A stretch of DNA of 64,000 nt from an uncultured Candidatus Saccharibacteria bacterium (GCA_964507855.1 CAZDQS010000004.1:14888-78887), one strand, 5' to 3'; shown: positions 8,051 through 33,464, counted from the stretch's first letter. Notes: generated from the sequence alone by a model not told the origin. Numbers and translations: made by a program.

Positions 8051-8995
8051 TCAGAGGTCGAGAGACAGAAGCGCAACAGCGCCGATCGCTCCCGCCTTCT
8101 CTCCGAACTGCGACAACTTGACGCTGGGCTTCTGTGCCATGGTCAGTTCGTCGCGAAGCCGAGCCTCCAGCTCCTCGAGGAGCCACGGCTGCTTGGCAGC
8201 GATGCCGCCGCTAAAGGTTACCAGCGGGACATCGAGGAGCATCAAGGCGTTCCGGATCCCCATAGTCATGAGGCCCAGAATCTCCTTCCACTCACGACCG
8301 CCAGGCTTCAGCGCCTCAGCCGGCTGTCCGTAAGTTGCCCTGATGCCGTTGCCGCCAACGGAGGCCTCGAGACACCCGTACTGGCCGCACTTACACTGAC
8401 GCTTGCCACCGAAGAAGACTCGCTGGTGTCCGATCTCCGTCGGCCAGACCTTCGGCCGCCCTTCGATGTGCCGAACGATCGCGCCGCCGACGCCGGTTCC
8501 CCAGATCATGCCGAGGAAGTCGTCTTCCTGACCAAAGCCGTAGACGGCGTCTGCGAGTGCGGCCGCTTCGGCATCGTTGCCGAACACCACGGGACACTGG
8601 TTGGCGTCGCGGAAATATTCCACGATTTGCACGCCGACCCAATGGGGCAGGTTGGCCGACCCAGCAAGGTGGGTTCGCTCCGGGCTAACCTTGCCGGCGA
8701 CGGCCAGGCCGATGCCCTCGACGGGTCCATAAAGGTCCGCGAGGTCATAGATGGCCCGCTGAATAGCCCAGAGGTCATTCATGCAGCCAATCTCGCCCTT
8801 GTCGAGCGTCCGCTCTCGGACTTCTCTGCGGTCCACCTCCACGCCTTTGTCACGCGAAGGGAAGACACCGATCTTGGCGCTCGTGCCGCCAACGTCAATT
8901 CCAAGGTACAAGGTATTCTCCTTGCTCGGGGGGTCAATGACCCATGAACCTGCACGTGAACGATCGACCTTGAGCTCCTCGGTAACGAGGGTCAA
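8051..8995 (-). CDS. ROK family sugar kinase (glucokinase-like)
   Basis: LGIDVGGTSAKIG ATP-binding motif and CKCGQYGCLEA zinc/ROK signature. GC3-rich codon usage unlike its neighbours. Confidence 0.85.
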   Translation of the reverse strand: MTLVTEELKVDRSRAGSWVIDPPSKENTLYLGIDVGGTSAKIGVFPSRDKGVEVDRREVRERTLDKGEIGCMNDLWAIQRAIYDLADLYGPVEGIGLAVAGKVSPERTHLAGSANLPHWVGVQIVEYFRDANQCPVVFGNDAEAAALADAVYGFGQEDDFLGMIWGTGVGGAIVRHIEGRPKVWPTEIGHQRVFFGGKRQCKCGQYGCLEASVGGNGIRATYGQPAEALKPGGREWKEILGLMTMGIRNALMLLDVPLVTFSGGIAAKQPWLLEELEARLRDELTMAQKPSVKLSQFGEKAGAIGAVALLSLDL

Positions 8996-19167: not shown

Positions 19168-19322
19168 TGGTGACCTCACGGGGAATACAGGTATAATCCG
19201 CCCGTTTGCCAGCACGCTGGCGGGGGATTATCGAACCGCCTGGGGTTCGATTCCGTTTCTCGGTGAGAAACTACCAATGAAAAACACCCACCTGAAGAGT
19301 GGGTGCCTTTCATTGGTGACCT
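19168..19322 (-). repeat. 155-bp direct repeat, tRNA-proximal copy
   Basis: See 18145-18299. Its last 9 nt (19314-19322) are the real 3' end of tRNA-Glu. Confidence 0.85.
19276..19313 (-). terminator. Rho-independent terminator directly after tRNA-Glu
   Basis: Minus strand: GGCACCCAC-TCTTCAG-GTGGGTG followed by TTTTTC. Confidence 0.7.
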
Positions 19323-19388
19323 CACGGGGAATCGAACCCCGATTGCCAGGATGAGAACCTGGTGTCCTAACCGTTAGACGATGAGGCC
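19314..19388 (-). tRNA. tRNA-Glu (anticodon CTC)
   Basis: Manual cloverleaf: GGCCTCA/TGAGGTC acceptor (one G.U), D arm GTCT-AACGGTTA-GGAC, anticodon arm CCAGG-TTCTCAT-CCTGG, T arm CGGGG-TTCGATT-CCCCG, encoded ACCA. Confidence 0.92.
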
Positions 19389-27650: not shown

Positions 27651-28511
27651 ATGAGTATAACAACGCTTAAGCTTGTAAATAAAGACATCCCTGAACCGCT
27701 CAGGCATATCCCTACGCCCCCGAAACAACTCTGGGTTCTCGGCAATCTCACCCCACTGCTGGATAAACCAAAAGTGGCCGTTATTGGTAGCCGCAAAGCA
27801 TCGCCTTACGGGACCCATACCACCGAGAAGCTGGCTGGCGAGCTAGCGGGGAAGGGTATTGTCATCATCAGCGGGCTGGCGCTCGGGATAGACGGTATCG
27901 CCCACCGGGCAGCGCTCGGCAGTGGTGGGCACACTATTGCAGTGCTGCCATGCGGTCTGGAGCGCGTCTATCCCTCTTCACACCGGGAACTGGCGAAACG
28001 CATTCTGGATGGCGGCGGCGCACTTATCAGCGAGTACCCCGAGGGTACTGAGCCGCGCCGCGAGAACTTCATTGCCCGCAACCGCCTCATATCAGGCTTG
28101 GCCGACGGCGTGCTAATACCCGAAGCAGCCGAGAAGAGCGGCAGCCTGCATACCGCCAACTTTGCCCTGGAGCAGGGAAGGACGGTCATGGCCGTACCCG
28201 GCAATATCACCAGCCCGACGAGTAAGGGGACAAACAACCTTATTAAAAGCGGTGCTACACCGGTCACCGAGGCTGCCGACGTGCTGCACGCGCTTGGCCT
28301 GGAAGGGATCACACCAGAGCAGACTGAATTACTCGGCCAGAACAGGGAGGAGCAAATTGTGCTAGACCTACTAGGCGACGGTGTTACCGATGCCGCCGAG
28401 CTGCTGGCGCGCAGCGAACTGACCGCGCCCGCATTCAACCAAACTCTCACTATGCTGGAGATTACCGGCCGCATTAAACCAGTGGGCGCCGGGCATTGGA
28501 CACTTCGGTAG
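27651..28511 (+). CDS. dprA: DNA processing protein DprA
   Basis: GSRKASPYG, ISGLALGIDGIAHRAAL, NRLISGL motifs of the DprA Rossmann fold. Confidence 0.9.
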   Translation: MSITTLKLVNKDIPEPLRHIPTPPKQLWVLGNLTPLLDKPKVAVIGSRKASPYGTHTTEKLAGELAGKGIVIISGLALGIDGIAHRAALGSGGHTIAVLPCGLERVYPSSHRELAKRILDGGGALISEYPEGTEPRRENFIARNRLISGLADGVLIPEAAEKSGSLHTANFALEQGRTVMAVPGNITSPTSKGTNNLIKSGATPVTEAADVLHALGLEGITPEQTELLGQNREEQIVLDLLGDGVTDAAELLARSELTAPAFNQTLTMLEITGRIKPVGAGHWTLR

Positions 28512-28515
28512 AGTA

Positions 28516-28544
28516 TTGACATTTTTTAATTTTTATGGTAAATT
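28516..28544 (+). promoter_or_regulatory. sigma-70-like promoter candidate
   Basis: TTGACA - 17 nt - TAAATT, about 85 nt upstream of the 28628 ATG. Confidence 0.4.
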
Positions 28545-28627
28545 CATTCAATCCTGGCAATTGCCTGGATACCACCGTTCTCACCTGAAAAGGTTTTGAG
28601 AACCCGCACCTGAGGAGAATAGACAGA

Positions 28628-28939
28628 ATGACCAACGAGGCAGTCCTGGACCTCGACCACACCGACGACAACGCTCCGGTGTACATCGCCGACATCCCCG
28701 TAGAAATCACTCTTCATGCCTTAGGGCATGTGGATCGGCTGAACGATTCGGCCATCATCGACTGCTTCACCTGCACTGGTGAGAAGACGTTCCTCGTGCA
28801 GCAGCACCAGTTCCTGGATGGGACGCACCACGTCAGTGGTGTCTTCGACCCGTTCGGGGACTCCATCGACGCCCGTTTCACCTGCACGCTCGACTTCCAG
28901 TCGGACATGGAGACGTGCATCATCAAGCGTGTCCGCTGA
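28628..28939 (+). CDS. hypothetical acidic protein (103 aa), GC3-rich
   Basis: ORF with GAGGAG SD and an upstream promoter candidate. Codon third positions are strongly G/C, unlike the flanking genes. Confidence 0.6.
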   Translation: MTNEAVLDLDHTDDNAPVYIADIPVEITLHALGHVDRLNDSAIIDCFTCTGEKTFLVQQHQFLDGTHHVSGVFDPFGDSIDARFTCTLDFQSDMETCIIKRVR

Positions 28940-29260
28940 GGCGGATACCAAGAGAGGCGCCGGGGAAGGCAGAAGAGCGACCACAAGTCGCGTCCTTCCT
29001 CGGCAGGGGTTTTGGTTATTTCTATTTCTCCTCAGGTTTTTCTCTTATTGTTTATGATCATGCTGATATTCGAGCGTTCAGCGAGAATATATGCCGAACC
29101 CAAGAAAACAATTCCTTTATGAAAAATAAGTTTTCTTAGCGTGAAGCTATATGAGTCCAAAAGGACGAAAACGAAAAAACTTGCCAAAACCCCTGCTAAT
29201 GCGGTAGGGTGAAGTGCTGTTGCATTGTGCCAATGCCTTTCGCAACGTAAGATACTACTT

Positions 29261-31555
29261 ATGGCAAAAAACTTAGTTATCGTAGAGAGCCCGGCAAAAG
29301 CCAAGACGATTGAGAAGTACCTGGGCAAAGATTTTGTGGTCAAAAGCAGTTTTGGCCATATCCGGGATTTGCCCAAAAAAGGCCTCGCGATTGATAAAGA
29401 AAAAGGCTTCGAACCGTCTTATGAGATTTCCGCCGACAAGAAGAAGGTCGTCGCCGAACTCCGCAAAGCCGCCAAGAGCGCCGAGACCGTCTGGCTGGCA
29501 AGTGATGAAGACCGCGAAGGAGAGGCGATTGCCTGGCACCTCTGCCACGCCCTGAAGCTTGACCCCAAGAAGACCAAGCGGATTGTCTTTCACGAAATCA
29601 CCAAGCCCGCCATCCTGCACGCTATTGAAAACCCACGCACCGTTGACCAGCACCTCGTTGATGCCCAGCAGGCCCGCCGCGTCCTCGACCGGCTTGTCGG
29701 GTATGAACTCTCACCAGTACTCTGGAAAAAAGTCCGCACCGGCTTAAGCGCCGGCCGCGTACAATCCGTCGCCGTCCGGCTCATCGTTGAGCGCGAGCGT
29801 GAGATTAAAGAATTCGAGGCCGAAAGCAGCTTCAAGGTCACGGCTATCTTTACAATAGGCAAAGAAGAGCTCAAAGCTGAACTCAGCACTAAGTTCCCGG
29901 ACATTGCCGCTGCCCGGAAGTTCCTCGAAGCCTGCATTAATGACACTTTTACTGTCCAAGACGTTGCCACCAAGCCTGGCTCGCGCAACCCGGGGCCGCC
30001 ATTTACGACCAGCTCACTCCAGCAGGAAGCCGCCCGCCGGCTCGGTTACAGCGTCCGCCAGACCATGACGCTCGCCCAGCGCCTGTACGAGAGCGGTCAC
30101 ATTACCTATATGCGTACCGACAGCACCAACTTGGCTGGCCAGGCAATCAAAGCAGCCGAGGATTACATCAAGAAGTCCTATGGTGACAAGTATCACCAGG
30201 TACGCCAGTACAAGACCAAATCCGCCGGCGCCCAGGAAGCCCACGAAGCCATCAGGCCGACCGATTTCACTAAGACAAGCGCCGGCAGTGATGCTCAACA
30301 AAAGAAGTTATACGAGCTTATCTGGCGCCGCGCCCTCGCCAGCCAGATGGCACCTGCCGCCATTGACCGCACCGAGATCACTATTGCGCCGTCGAAATCA
30401 AAGGAGACGTTTATCGCCAAGGGCGAAGTACTTATATTTGACGGTTTCCTCAAGGTGTACGGCGGCGGCAAAGATGATGTGATTTTGCCTAAAGTTGAAA
30501 AAGGCCAACGTCTTGACCTGTCCACGATGACCGCTGCGGAGGTATTCAGCCGTCCGCCGGCCCGCTACTCTGAAGCCAGCCTCGTCAAGAAGCTCGAGGA
30601 GCTTGGCATCGGCCGGCCAAGTACCTACGCGCCGACCATCAGCACTATCCAATCTCGCGGCTACGTTGAGAAACGCGACCTTGAGGGCGTAGAACGTGAA
30701 GTACAGACACTCACGCTAGAGAAGGGAAGCGTAACCGAAGCCACCACCACCGAAGTGACAGGAGCTGACCGCGGCAAACTCCTGCCGACCGACATCGCCA
30801 TGATGACGACCGACTTCTTGACCAAACACTTTAGTGACATCGTAGACTTTGACTTCACCGCCCGGGCAGAGGAGGAGTTTGATGAAATCGCCGACGGCAA
30901 GCAGACCTGGAACAAGATGATCAAAGAGTTCTATACCGGTTTCCAGCCGCTCATCGGCAAGGCGGAAGACATCAGCCGCGAGGAAACCAGCCAAGCCCGC
31001 GTGCTTGGGCAAGACCCCAAGAGCGGCAAGCCTGTGATAGCCCGTTATGGCCGCTACGGTGCTATGTTACAGATTGGCGAGGTAGAAGACGACGAAAAGC
31101 CTCGGTTTGCGCCGCTGCCGCAAGGAACGACACTCGAGACCGTCACATTCGAGCAGGCTATGGAGATGTTCAAGCTGCCGCGCGACGTCGGCACCACCAA
31201 AGACGGCGAAGTTATCAAAGCCAACATCGGCCGCTTTGGCCCATACATCCAGATCAACAAGACGTACGTCTCGATCAAGCCCCTCGACCCGCTGACTATC
31301 ACCGAAGCGGAAGCCCGCAAACTTTACGAAGAAAAGCTGGAAAAAGAAGCCAACAAGTACATCAACCGCTTCCCAGGCGGCATAGATGTTGTCAACGGCC
31401 CATACGGCCCATACATTACCAACGGCAAGAAGAATGCCAAAATCCCGAAAGACGCCGATCCCAAGAGCATCACCGAAGCCCAAGCTAAAGAGCTGCTTGA
31501 GAAGGCCCCTGCAAAAGGTCGCCGCTTCCCCCGCCGCAAATCCCGCGCCAAATAG
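29261..31555 (+). CDS. topA: DNA topoisomerase I
   Basis: MAKNLVIVESPAKAKTIEKYLG (Toprim), ITYMRTDS active-site Tyr motif; C-terminal Lys-rich repeats. Start moved to the MAKN ATG. Confidence 0.95.
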   Translation: MAKNLVIVESPAKAKTIEKYLGKDFVVKSSFGHIRDLPKKGLAIDKEKGFEPSYEISADKKKVVAELRKAAKSAETVWLASDEDREGEAIAWHLCHALKLDPKKTKRIVFHEITKPAILHAIENPRTVDQHLVDAQQARRVLDRLVGYELSPVLWKKVRTGLSAGRVQSVAVRLIVEREREIKEFEAESSFKVTAIFTIGKEELKAELSTKFPDIAAARKFLEACINDTFTVQDVATKPGSRNPGPPFTTSSLQQEAARRLGYSVRQTMTLAQRLYESGHITYMRTDSTNLAGQAIKAAEDYIKKSYGDKYHQVRQYKTKSAGAQEAHEAIRPTDFTKTSAGSDAQQKKLYELIWRRALASQMAPAAIDRTEITIAPSKSKETFIAKGEVLIFDGFLKVYGGGKDDVILPKVEKGQRLDLSTMTAAEVFSRPPARYSEASLVKKLEELGIGRPSTYAPTISTIQSRGYVEKRDLEGVEREVQTLTLEKGSVTEATTTEVTGADRGKLLPTDIAMMTTDFLTKHFSDIVDFDFTARAEEEFDEIADGKQTWNKMIKEFYTGFQPLIGKAEDISREETSQARVLGQDPKSGKPVIARYGRYGAMLQIGEVEDDEKPRFAPLPQGTTLETVTFEQAMEMFKLPRDVGTTKDGEVIKANIGRFGPYIQINKTYVSIKPLDPLTITEAEARKLYEEKLEKEANKYINRFPGGIDVVNGPYGPYITNGKKNAKIPKDADPKSITEAQAKELLEKAPAKGRRFPRRKSRAK

Positions 31556-31574: not shown

Positions 31575-31603
31575 TTGAAAAAGTTTGTATATTGTGTTAT
31601 TAT
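31575..31603 (+). promoter_or_regulatory. sigma-70-like promoter candidate
   Basis: TTGAAA - 17 nt - TATTAT immediately after the topA stop. Confidence 0.45.
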
Positions 31604-31662: not shown

Positions 31663-31911
31663 ATGATTGCTGGGCAGCACAGCTACCGCCTGTGCCCCAC
31701 AATCTTCCCGCACAACGAAAGGACCACTGTGTCAGCAGCCATCCCCGGCATCGCATCTATTGTGACGGCAATCTTCTGTGGTTTATGCACAGCTACTGCC
31801 GTAGACAACAAGAAGGCCTCCTTCTACGGAATGGCAGCCTTCACTGGTCTCATGGCCATCCTAACTGGGATGCTTGCCGCAAGCCAGCTCATCATCGAGA
31901 ACATGGGATAA
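31663..31911 (+). CDS. small two-TM membrane protein (82 aa; possibly 60 aa from the GTG at 31729)
   Basis: Two hydrophobic helices (AAIPGIASIVTAIFCGLC; MAAFTGLMAILTGMLAA). AAAGGA lies 7 nt before the internal GTG. Confidence 0.4.
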   Translation: MIAGQHSYRLCPTIFPHNERTTVSAAIPGIASIVTAIFCGLCTATAVDNKKASFYGMAAFTGLMAILTGMLAASQLIIENMG

Positions 31912-32035
31912 CTCCTTTTGACATCAGCCGTTCCGGCCACCAGAAGCAAGCAGAGAGAAGGGTGTGGAGACACACAAAGGATCTGCTCGCCAACTGGCTT
32001 GCACCTCTTTTGTCTCTACATTGTTCTGTCTGCTT

Positions 32036-32092
32036 GGTTCGCTTCACGAATGTGTGTTTGTGCTGATGAGCCGAAAACGGCGAAAGCGAGCC
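32036..32092 (+). ncRNA. type III hammerhead ribozyme
   Basis: Read 5' to 3': GGUUCGCU-U (cleavage after 32044), stem I hairpin CACGAA-UGUGUG-UUUGUG, core CUGAUGA, stem II GCCG-AAAA-CGGC, then GAAA-GCGAGCC. All conserved core nucleotides are present and all three stems pair. Confidence 0.85.
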
Positions 32093-32276
32093 TAAAGTTA
32101 GTAAATAAGCATAAGAATGTACCTTTGGCACATATTTTTCCACAGCTCACATCTATTACTTAGTAATATTGCTATGCAAAATATGGGCGAGAACGTCCAC
32201 TACGTGCTACAATAATTACGCACAACACATTCGCCGCAACACCGCGAACGAAAAGAGAAAAAAGCGGCCGTAAGTG

Positions 32277-32305
32277 TTGACTTTAACAAACTAACGTTAT
32301 ATAAT
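32277..32305 (+). promoter_or_regulatory. sigma-70-like promoter
   Basis: TTGACT - 17 nt - TATAAT, about 120 nt upstream of the 32424 ATG. Confidence 0.55.
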
Positions 32306-32423
32306 TAGTTAATTCATGCTGGTGGATTGACGGCGACCGTAGGCATGCAGGGTAGGGAACTACAGCCGATCCCCCTCACATCTAAAAGTACGACTAAAAC
32401 AGCAAATAACAGATAGGAAGTAT

Positions 32424-33464
32424 ATGCCTGACACTGAAGTACAAGCCAAGACGTTGAACATCGAAGTCATTGTTAATGACGTCCTGGAGACTATTGAACG
32501 AGAGCGTGAGCGTGAAATTGTTGCTCGACGCTTTGGCTTGTTTGATCGCAAGGAAACACTGGAGCAAATCGGTGAACTCCTTGGTATTACCCGTGAGCGT
32601 GTCCGCCAGCTTGAGAAGGCTGTCGTCGCCCGCCTCAAGGCCGCTGCCGGCAATGACCTGCCGCACATCGGTGAAATCGAAGAGACATTCGTCACCCACC
32701 TGCGCGAACTCGGCGGCGTCAGTCGTATCAGCAACCTCAGTGAGCGTTTGACGGCTGAGAACAGCCGGGTAGACCAGGCACGTGTATCCTTCCTCGCCCA
32801 GCTCTGCCCGCAACTCGTCGTTATTGATGAAAACGACCACTTTTACCACTCTGCCGGTTTGGCCGAACTCCATGACGAGAAGGCCCTTAAGGCTCAGGTA
32901 GCCAAGATTATTGACGCCATCAAGAAGATCGGTGAACCGACCCAGATAGACAAGATTGCAGAAGCCGTCGGCGATGCCGATCCGGCACATACCGAAGCAC
33001 TCGCCAGCACCTCGAAGCACCTCGCGACTCTCAACGGCCGCTGGGGCCTCGTCAAGTGGCCGATGGTCAACCCCAAGAACATCCGCGACAAGATCTACGT
33101 CATCCTGCACGACAACAAAAAGCCGCTGCACTTCAATGAAATTGCCGACGCTATTAAGAAATCCAGCTTCAAGCGCAAGGATGTTACCACCCAGGCTATC
33201 CATAACGAGCTCATCAAAGATAAGCGCTTTGTCCTCATTGGTCGTGGTATCTACGCCCTCAAGGAATGGGGTTATGAGCGCGGCACCGTTGCCGATATCA
33301 TCGCCGATGTCCTCAAGAAGGCCGGTGAACCGCTACACCGCGACGAGATCGTCAAGCGCGTGCTGAAGAGCCGCCAGGTTAAGGAGACGACTATTCTCCT
33401 GAACCTCCAGGGTAAGCCGCAGTTCAAGCGTGTCGCCAAGGCCACCTACGCGCTCGCTGAATAG
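32424..33464 (+). CDS. sigma-70 region 4-like HTH plus HARE-HTH (RpoE-delta-like) domain protein
   Basis: REREIVARRFGLFDRKETLEQIGELLGITRERVRQLEKAVVARLK (region 4). C-terminal LHFNEIADAIKK...RFVLIGRGIYALKEWGYERG repeated HARE-HTH-like modules. Confidence 0.75.
   Translation: MPDTEVQAKTLNIEVIVNDVLETIEREREREIVARRFGLFDRKETLEQIGELLGITRERVRQLEKAVVARLKAAAGNDLPHIGEIEETFVTHLRELGGVSRISNLSERLTAENSRVDQARVSFLAQLCPQLVVIDENDHFYHSAGLAELHDEKALKAQVAKIIDAIKKIGEPTQIDKIAEAVGDADPAHTEALASTSKHLATLNGRWGLVKWPMVNPKNIRDKIYVILHDNKKPLHFNEIADAIKKSSFKRKDVTTQAIHNELIKDKRFVLIGRGIYALKEWGYERGTVADIIADVLKKAGEPLHRDEIVKRVLKSRQVKETTILLNLQGKPQFKRVAKATYALAE

Follow-up and report, generated by a model that had tools for sequence, protein, structure and literature searches.

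A predicted type III hammerhead ribozyme at the end of an orphan-gene unit beside topA in a Saccharimonadia chromosome

What would a self-cleaving RNA be doing between two genes in the core chromosome of a bacterium? The question is raised by a 64,000-nt stretch of DNA from an uncultured Candidatus Saccharibacteria bacterium (GCA_964507855.1 CAZDQS010000004.1:14888-78887; the whole stretch is called the window here), in which a preliminary description made from the sequence had placed a complete type III hammerhead ribozyme at positions 32036-32092, between a small membrane-protein gene and a sigma-like regulator. Of the annotated core genes, topA lies before these positions, and after them comes a gene whose 346-aa product has a sigma-70 region 4 and a HARE-HTH domain (the sigma-like gene). 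Our computational analysis indicates that this element is very probably a true type III hammerhead, for which self-cleavage is predicted, and that it lies at the end of a unit carrying a small orphan gene. We favour, with some confidence, an account in which the ribozyme caps this inserted unit and severs read-through RNA.

The element reads, on the plus strand, GGUUCGCU-U-CACGAA-UGUGUG-UUUGUG-CUGAUGA-GCCG-AAAA-CGGC-GAA-AGCGAGCC, and every part of the motif in the preliminary description, with its coordinates, was read back in the sequence (Table 1). The A15.1-U16.1 pair is present (A32085 with U32043), position 17 is a non-G (U32044), and stem II is closed by G10.1-C11.1 (G32070 with C32081), a pair that is invariant in 35 copies of the family described below. 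When the 57-mer is folded alone, its minimum free energy (MFE) structure is the exact three-way hammerhead junction, at -21.7 kcal/mol (z = -3.4), with stems of 8, 6-7 and 4 bp, of which stems I and II are closed by loops and stem III has the open end. The ribozyme belongs to a compact subclass of about 57 nt, whose members have 6 bp in stem I and 4 bp in stem II, with UGNGUR as loop I and NAAA as loop II.

To gauge chance matches we used a type III descriptor of our own, in which the core, the GAA, a non-G at position 17 and three helices are all required. Its sole match on both strands of the 64 kb is the site at 32036-32092. In dinucleotide-preserving shuffles, loose descriptor matches averaged 0.027 per window, and not one of 300 shuffles reached the helix lengths seen here. 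Rfam Hammerhead_3 (RF00008), searched at a permissive threshold, aligns with the element from end to end (31.4 bits, E = 5.8e-5 over 401 nt). A covariance model, R1, was built from five copies, namely the window's own and those of the related loci L007, L010, L034 and L071 (loci are cited by our own handles); it scores these source copies at 63-77 bits, with 71.4 bits for that of the window, and it found no further strong match over 580 kb. With a refined family model, R2, built from 37 related copies, run with filters off and giving rough E-values, the copy of the window reaches 69.2 bits (E about 4e-20). The earlier statement that a chance match is unlikely is thus borne out by the uniqueness of the descriptor match, by the 300 shuffles and by the family-model score.

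The family itself carries the signature of a conserved fold. An alignment, A4, holds 37 copies gathered by R1, 35 of them distinct, and in this model-fitted alignment 94% of the cells are standard pairs, as against 28-47% when the partners are slid by 1-3 columns. Both-sided changes are seen in 12 of the 16 pairs, and none of 500 shuffles reaches the observed score. Stem III, which is free of constraint from the retrieval pattern, varies widely in sequence yet stays paired. The core is invariant across copies save for N7, which is U or C; N7 is a known free position of the hammerhead core. The stems vary, and in nearly all copies loop I starts with UG and loop II ends with AAA. The first base of loop II is A where loop I is a UGNGUR loop of 5-6 nt, and U where loop I is longer, a pattern consistent with a loop-loop tertiary contact. 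Core, fold and covariation in the 35 distinct copies together lend strong support to the earlier identification of a complete type III hammerhead.

Where else does this ribozyme occur? The descriptor found intact hammerheads in 4 of 80 related loci, all on the gene strand: the copy of L007 lies in the same gap between topA and the sigma-like gene, and those of L010, L034 and L071 lie upstream of topA. The distribution is therefore sporadic, with a hammerhead in 5 of 81 loci at this neighbourhood. In viral contigs, a generic pattern consisting of the core and a 4-bp stem II with an NAAA loop matches at least 120 contigs, and R1 recognises 120 type III hammerheads of the 57-nt architecture in 80 viral loci, often 2-5 per contig. 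The R1 matches in phage contigs imply that the ribozyme belongs to a widespread subclass of phages and bacteria. A narrower pattern, with an ACGAAU stem I, has no match in viral contigs and is found in 28 metagenomic stretches, some of them on contigs of 0.8-1.2 Mb. The flanking genes of these metagenomic copies, where comparable, match those of Saccharimonadia (topA, the sigma-like gene and a gene of the window at 62-78% identity), and the Obg protein encoded beside the L228 copy has named relatives that are all Saccharimonadia or Saccharimonadales; the assignment to Saccharimonadia covers the metagenomic copies with comparable flanking genes. A 16-mer of the conserved 5' flank, TTGTTCTGTCTGCTTG, was also tried as a marker and set aside: it occurs in 26 viral contigs, which by a rough, uncomputed estimate is about the chance number.

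In the window, the ribozyme is the last part of a unit with a recognisable order. The two promoter-like sites quoted in the preliminary description, TTGAAA-17-TATTAT at 31575 and TTGACT-17-TATAAT at 32277, were reproduced by a consensus scan; the first of them, which includes a TG, is the putative start of a ribozyme-carrying transcript. It is followed by an ORF (open reading frame) of 82 aa, for which Pfam gave only sub-threshold matches, to membrane families; a search of 1.84 billion representative proteins found no relative but the protein itself, and the 80 related loci hold no homologue. The long imperfect hairpin that comes next is very stable (fold of 31906-32035: -53.9 kcal/mol, z = -6.2; fold of 31912-32100: z = -5.8), and L034 has an equivalent hairpin with an identical 17-nt 3' arm. 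No intrinsic-terminator-like site was found on the plus strand between 28400 and 32500.

Downstream of the ribozyme, blastn of the intergenic region against the 80 loci revealed two conserved blocks. The second holds the TTGACT-17-TATAAT site (32277-32305; 11/12 in the promoter scan), and we also note an extended -10-like sequence, TGCTACAAT, in the first. Many loci devoid of a hammerhead preserve both blocks in front of their sigma-like gene, and the blocks mark the right-hand limit of the extra DNA; they are probably the promoter region of the sigma-like gene itself, with tandem promoters. Judged from these parts, the intact unit is about 550-600 nt long, sits between topA and the sigma-like gene, and consists of a promoter-like site, an orphan ORF of membrane type, a long hairpin and the ribozyme.

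Table 1. Positions of the features discussed, counted from the first letter of the window
Feature	Positions	Strand	Basis or remarks
dprA	27651-28511		flanking gene
Second inserted unit	28516-29004	+	promoter scan, ORF list, fold, gap length
Promoter-like site TTGACA-17-TAAATT	28516-28544	+	promoter scan
Orphan 103-aa ORF	28628-28939	+	ORF list
GC hairpin	28959-29004	+	fold; then U/C-rich spacer and remnant
Degenerate hammerhead remnant upstream of topA	29125-29177	+	R1 and R2 matches
topA	29225-31555		flanking gene
Promoter-like site TTGAAA-17-TATTAT	31575-31603	+	consensus scan 10/12; consensus match only
Orphan 82-aa ORF, two hydrophobic segments	31663-31911	+	ORF list; called as a gene in a public assembly
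Long imperfect hairpin	31948-32035	+	fold; 3' end abuts first ribozyme base
Type III hammerhead ribozyme (predicted)	32036-32092	+	sequence read, MFE fold, Rfam RF00008 alignment, descriptor, family models, covariation
Stem III, 5' strand GGUUCGCU	32036-32043	+	pairs with 32085-32092; 8 bp, one G.U
U17	32044	+	predicted cut between 32044 and 32045; triplet CUU
Stem I, CACGAA/UUUGUG	32045-32050 with 32057-32062	+	6 bp, one G.U
Loop I, UGUGUG	32051-32056	+	sequence read
Core, CUGAUGA	32063-32069	+	C3-U4-G5-A6-N7-G8-A9 between stems I and II, all intact
Stem II, GCCG/CGGC	32070-32073 with 32078-32081	+	4 bp
Loop II, AAAA	32074-32077	+	sequence read
G12-A13-A14 (GAA)	32082-32084	+	between stems II and III
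Stem III, 3' strand, A15.1 + GCGAGCC	32085-32092	+	sequence read
Conserved blocks before the sigma-like gene	32163-32214 and 32272-32315	+	blastn of intergenic region against 80 loci
346-aa protein, sigma-70 region 4 + HARE-HTH domains (sigma-like gene)	32424-33464

The same anatomy recurs at other junctions. Saccharimonadia copies lie between co-directional housekeeping genes, from obg to exoI (exonuclease I), from clpP to rpoB and from rpsP/KH to trmD, as well as in front of ligA, in front of topA and in the gap that separates topA from the sigma-like gene. In some six loci the gene that follows is convergent, and a role at a 3' end, as opposed to one in a 5' untranslated region (UTR), is the only one that fits there. 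In the related copies a same-strand ORF of 45-220 aa consistently ends 35-190 nt before the ribozyme, and the 130 nt upstream of the ribozyme are strongly structured in 31 of 34 copies (median z = -4.5, from mononucleotide shuffles), in the form of one long GC-rich hairpin. The hairpin is usually followed by an unpaired, G-poor spacer (median G about 0.17-0.18 versus 0.24 in the background); this depletion is moderate, and copies whose hairpin runs directly into the ribozyme, among them that of the window, do not show it. The spacer, which is also C-rich, was considered as a possible Rho-loading site or anti-Shine-Dalgarno sequence.

Searched against Pfam and PHROGs, the cargo ORFs fall into no family, and when clustered together they yield only orthologues from sister genomes and one pair of tandem paralogues, being otherwise unrelated. 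In two loci the gap from topA to the sigma-like gene is filled with four hammerheads at a spacing of 550-900 nt (L251 1844-3934 on the plus strand and L252 1497-3303 on the minus strand); these are same-strand arrays in which an ORF of 99-191 aa followed by a hammerhead is repeated four times. We also observed, between clpP and rpoB of L241 (4140-4866, minus strand), a tandem duplication of about 667 nt; it includes a hammerhead and a 90-nt hairpin region, the latter near-identical, together with a paralogous membrane ORF at 41% identity.

Several comparisons indicate that such units have been added to an otherwise conserved gene order, the intact one of the window recently. In the window topA and the sigma-like gene are 868 nt apart, where the median is 244 nt (n = 72); dprA and topA are separated by 749 nt, the longest of 33 such gaps, for which the median is 183 nt. 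The clearest comparison comes from the obg-to-exoI junction. In L228, taken as the reference (reverse strand 8106-8713), this gap is 608 nt long and contains TGTATAAT, a 101-aa orphan ORF, a hairpin and the hammerhead. In L256 and L257, whose Obg is 88% identical to that of L228, it is 43 nt long and holds nothing extra (L256 4273-4315), and L228 can still be aligned with L256 over the 23 nt that immediately precede the start of exonuclease I. In L258 and L259 (Obg 85% identical to L228) the same place is occupied by about 2.5 kb of another insertion that has no hammerhead (L258 4273-6829). On this comparison of gene order, the hammerhead-capped units are insertions that are absent from sister genomes. 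The idea that every gap expansion carries a ribozyme was rejected, since other expanded gaps lack a hammerhead; the ribozyme is frequent in such insertions, yet not obligatory. The obg-exoI junction appears to be a hot spot at which orphan genes are inserted, some of them accompanied by a hammerhead and some not.

There are also signs that the 3' part of the unit travels. The modules of the window and of L034 are 82% identical over 77 nt and lie at different junctions, and a CUGCUUGUCA-like flank stands directly 5' of the ribozyme in 5 copies at up to 2 mismatches, in unrelated contexts. The window's own copy of CUGCUUGUCA (32020-32035) has 3 mismatches, and the window and L034 (322-338) share 17 identical bases here. 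These likenesses suggest that a module made of hairpin and ribozyme moves between loci. Besides that of L034, the copies with a CUGCUUGUCA-like flank 5' of stem III are those of L238, L243, L235 (second copy) and L007.

The window itself holds the trace of a second such event, in the gap between dprA and topA. This second inserted unit again has a promoter-like site, an orphan ORF and a GC hairpin; its 103-aa ORF matches no Pfam or PHROG family and has no homologue in the related loci. It ends in a degenerate hammerhead, which R1 detects with 22.3 bits (E 0.0035) and R2 with 21.8 bits (E 1.8e-4, filters off). Two parts of the remnant, GUCC-AAAA-GGAC and CGAAA, are intact and match the L071 copy base for base. 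The core of the remnant has become CUAuAUGAG, with G5 lost and one base inserted, and stem I is missing; it is therefore predicted to be inactive, the dead hammerhead of a second capped unit. It occupies the gap in which L010, L034 and L071 bear intact copies, so that an intact and a degenerate copy flank topA, 2.9 kb apart. A third hammerhead-like match (29045-29114; R2, E 0.44) was judged not significant. In at least 22 Saccharimonadales loci topA is preceded by a conserved glycine-rich membrane ORF of 56-58 aa (MKLMIFIGITVFGTVGAWLGAALFDHGNWFGG...; for example L010 279-449 and L071 263-439); the window has no homologue of it, and the same gap carries the orphan 103-aa unit instead.

The wider neighbourhood is that of a core chromosome. 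The host chromosome belongs to Saccharimonadia (TM7, candidate phyla radiation, CPR), an assignment based on named homologues, those of the 346-aa protein being Candidatus Saccharibacteria and Saccharimonadales; all 80 related genomic loci likewise come from the Saccharibacteria/Saccharimonadales group. The dprA-topA-sigma-like neighbourhood adjoins the dcw cluster, and within about 10 kb all the genes are of the housekeeping kind, encoding a two-component pair, a pseudouridine synthase, Der, Pth, MurG, FtsW, MraY, a PBP and RsmH. No integrase, phage, reverse-transcriptase or other retroelement gene was found within about 10 kb of the ribozyme. The preliminary description had stated that neither a phage or retroelement gene nor a second ribozyme is nearby; the former holds for these 10 kb, and the latter has to be corrected in view of the degenerate copy upstream of topA. 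The sole Rfam matches in the window at gathering thresholds are two tRNA genes (1509-1590 and 19317-19388, both on the minus strand). Permissive local matches to snoU61, miRNA families and STnc410 (E 0.6-4) are due to the long hairpin and were treated as chance.

We propose that the ribozyme acts as a maker of 3' ends and as an insulator for the inserted gene, a role to which we give about even odds. Transcripts that start at the unit's promoter, or that read through from topA, would fold the hammerhead as the RNA emerges and would be cleaved after U32044. The upstream RNA would then end in a 2',3'-cyclic phosphate 9 nt past a very stable hairpin, a structure expected to block 3' exonucleases, and the downstream RNA would begin with a 5'-OH on the structured body of the ribozyme. 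The mRNA of the inserted gene would in this way gain a defined and protected 3' end without a canonical terminator, and the sigma-like gene would be uncoupled from upstream transcription and would rely on its own two conserved promoter blocks. The preliminary description had suggested either trimming of the 3' UTR of the small-protein transcript or insulation of the two transcription units. Such a role is favoured by the comparative context, that is, by the order of ORF, hairpin and ribozyme, by the position at the end of an insertion and by what appear to be the sigma-like gene's own promoters.

A number of observations weigh against this account or against the identification beneath it. In Rfam, the score of 31.4 bits lies below the gathering threshold of 48.5, and the ribozyme is not listed at gathering thresholds. 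The preliminary description had named two results that together would speak against the motif, a sub-threshold Hammerhead_3 score and no self-cleavage of the in vitro transcript, and the first of these is what the search returned. Yet of about 25 sister and phage copies that our model detects in 12 loci, a single one reaches the Rfam gathering score; the sub-threshold score is uninformative because Rfam misses about 24 of these 25 copies, sister copies that have the support of covariation, and we read it as a limit of the Rfam model rather than as evidence against membership. As to the covariation, A4 is a model-fitted alignment in which the retrieval pattern had already dictated parts of stems I and II. 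The z-scores of the upstream hairpins come from mononucleotide shuffles. The CUU triplet of the window is only the second commonest in the family (6 of 34, with CUC in 22 of 34). Other expanded gaps between topA and the sigma-like gene, or between obg and exoI, were scanned and showed neither a hammerhead nor any Rfam family. When the 130 nt upstream are included, an alternative pairing in the window beats the native fold by 3.4 kcal/mol, and across the family only 12 of 32 copies have the native fold within their MFE structure, the median cost of keeping it being about 1 kcal/mol; neither tertiary contacts nor the order of co-transcriptional folding enter the energy model. Finally, self-cleavage in vivo, a ribozyme-carrying transcript, use of its promoter, the RNA ends at the locus and any stabilising or insulating effect are matters that we infer.

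Could the ribozyme simply be a relic that came in with its DNA? It would then be real, and might even cleave, having arrived with phage-like DNA and decaying since with no role selected in the host. The same architecture is indeed abundant in phage contigs, with 120 model matches in the 80 viral loci; the occurrence at this neighbourhood of Saccharimonadia is sporadic; a decayed copy lies in the same window; the cargo ORFs are orphans; and similar insertions exist that have no hammerhead at all. Yet the core is invariant save for N7 and the stems show compensatory changes across 35 copies, which argues for purifying selection on the fold, although such selection could also act in a mobile donor. 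The flanks differ as well: Saccharimonadia copies have a flank of their own, the long GC hairpin with its spacer, and phage copies lack it (upstream median z = -0.9). Directly 5' of 29 of 124 phage cores there is instead a short conserved hairpin, GUGUC-UUCAAAG-GACAC, against about 0.9% expected by chance, and this hairpin is found at none of 37 Saccharimonadia cores. The specific sequence variant, moreover, has no match in viral contigs. We therefore regard a passenger without function as unlikely. The phage hairpin can be seen, for example, at L123 333-350 and L161 13669-13686, and the motif occurs 362 times in the viral loci L082-L201.

The alternative pairing raises the possibility of a switch, in which the upstream sequence would regulate cleavage and so tune read-through from topA or the orphan ORF into the sigma-like gene. 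The MFE structure of 31912-32100 does disrupt the active fold: in it, the stem II/III region (32070-32092) finds another partner, a GCCGUU.CCGGCC segment a little way 3' of the ORF stop at 31911, and the native-containing fold is 3.4 kcal/mol less stable in the upstream context. This energy gap, though, is within model error, and it shrinks to 1.4 kcal/mol once 60 nt downstream are added. The competing segment is not conserved in the other copies, whose flanks beyond the hairpin differ by locus, Rfam scans gave no ligand-binding element and no Rfam riboswitch, and the promoters assigned to the sigma-like gene lie downstream. A conditional switch thus seems very unlikely to us. The segment itself could be a chance competitor or a local switch.

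Type III hammerheads drive RNA circles in other systems, such as eukaryotic retrozymes and viroid-like RNAs. By analogy, hammerheads in direct orientation could release ORF-length RNAs, ending in a 5'-OH and a cyclic phosphate, that an RtcB-type ligase would circularise, and the four-copy arrays of L251 and L252 would be able to release RNAs of unit length. In the window this is highly improbable. With one intact copy and one dead one, no RNA here would be released between two active sites; the genes within 10 kb include neither a reverse transcriptase nor another retroelement gene that we could find; and spliced or circular products of bacterial arrays have been sought and were not detected (Perreault et al. 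2011, PMC3088659). That the motif is a chance or inactive look-alike unrelated to hammerheads, as the Rfam score under the gathering cut-off might suggest, is hardly credible in the face of the shuffles, the 69-bit family-model score, the intact catalytic positions and the homologues with compensatory changes.

The hammerhead class, its occurrence in bacteria and phages (reported since 2010-2011) and the existence of gene-flanking arrays are already known. What appears to be new is the host group and the chromosomal setting outside prophages; the consistent anatomy of the unit is, to our knowledge, undescribed. In the literature that we searched, no report links hammerheads to Saccharibacteria, Patescibacteria or the candidate phyla radiation, and the finding would thus extend hammerheads to that radiation. 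As the Rfam gathering threshold misses almost the whole subclass, ribozymes of this kind are systematically left unannotated.

In its general form, a capped unit starts with a promoter and an orphan ORF, continues with a strong hairpin and a G-poor spacer, and closes with a type III hammerhead. We raise as a tentative, rather doubtful possibility that such units are a recurrent route by which new genes are slotted between essential co-directional genes in the highly compact genomes of Saccharimonadia. If this were true, the ribozyme would be a natural insulator and maker of 3' ends, the native counterpart of engineered ribozyme insulators; insertions would leave the expression of the downstream core gene undisturbed, and the hairpin-plus-ribozyme module would move between loci and genomes. 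The locus and its relatives offer an uncommonly clean natural setting in which the role of bacterial hammerheads can be studied, at the 3' end of small insertions within conserved housekeeping operons and with sister genomes that lack the insertion. The dead copy in the same window provides an internal contrast, so that the hypothesis of processing and insulation becomes directly testable.

How does the element compare with known systems? With the type III hammerhead of RF00008 it shares the CUGAUGA ... GAAA core, the A15.1-U16.1 pair, a non-G at position 17, the G10.1-C11.1 pair and an open stem III; its compact loops, of 6 and 4 nt, depart from the consensus of that model. A precedent in arrangement is provided by the prophage arrays of Perreault et al. 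(2011), in which hammerheads flank single genes; three such arrays cleaved in vitro, and the authors proposed that a polycistronic RNA is processed into gene-length mRNAs (PMC3088659). Those arrays resemble the present units in having same-strand hammerheads between co-directional ORFs and flanking genes of variable identity (PMC3088659). They differ from the window, which is core CPR chromosome with no phage genes within 10 kb and no PHROG cargo, and which has one intact and one dead copy. Unlike the phage hammerheads, 29 of whose 124 cores are preceded by the GUGUC-UUCAAAG-GACAC hairpin, the Saccharimonadia copies have the long GC hairpin and spacer as their 5' flank. The 3'-end and insulator role suggested here is an extension of the processing proposal made for the prophage arrays (PMC3088659).

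Processing of polycistronic RNA has been suggested but is unproven for bacterial hammerheads, whose role, as in phages, is still described as largely elusive, and the glmS ribozyme is the sole bacterial self-cleaving RNA with a well-understood role (PMC6765202). Like glmS, the present ribozyme would be a bacterial self-cleaving mRNA element, one whose cleavage would alter the fate of the transcript. The glmS ribozyme, however, has an unrelated fold, depends on a metabolite and always sits in the 5' UTR of one particular gene, whereas the Saccharimonadia element occurs beside many different genes and has no ligand-sensing part. Retrozymes and viroid-like circular RNAs also use type III hammerheads, and their direct repeats delimit RNAs of unit length; they differ in needing two active copies and circularisation, and retrozymes need a reverse transcriptase in trans. 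The engineered insulator RiboJ combines the sTRSV type III hammerhead with a hairpin and, set between a promoter-proximal region and a downstream gene, trims the upstream RNA, which makes expression of that gene independent of the sequence before it. RiboJ sits in a 5' UTR and has its hairpin 3' of the ribozyme; the element of the window is natural, lies after an ORF and has its hairpin on the 5' side.

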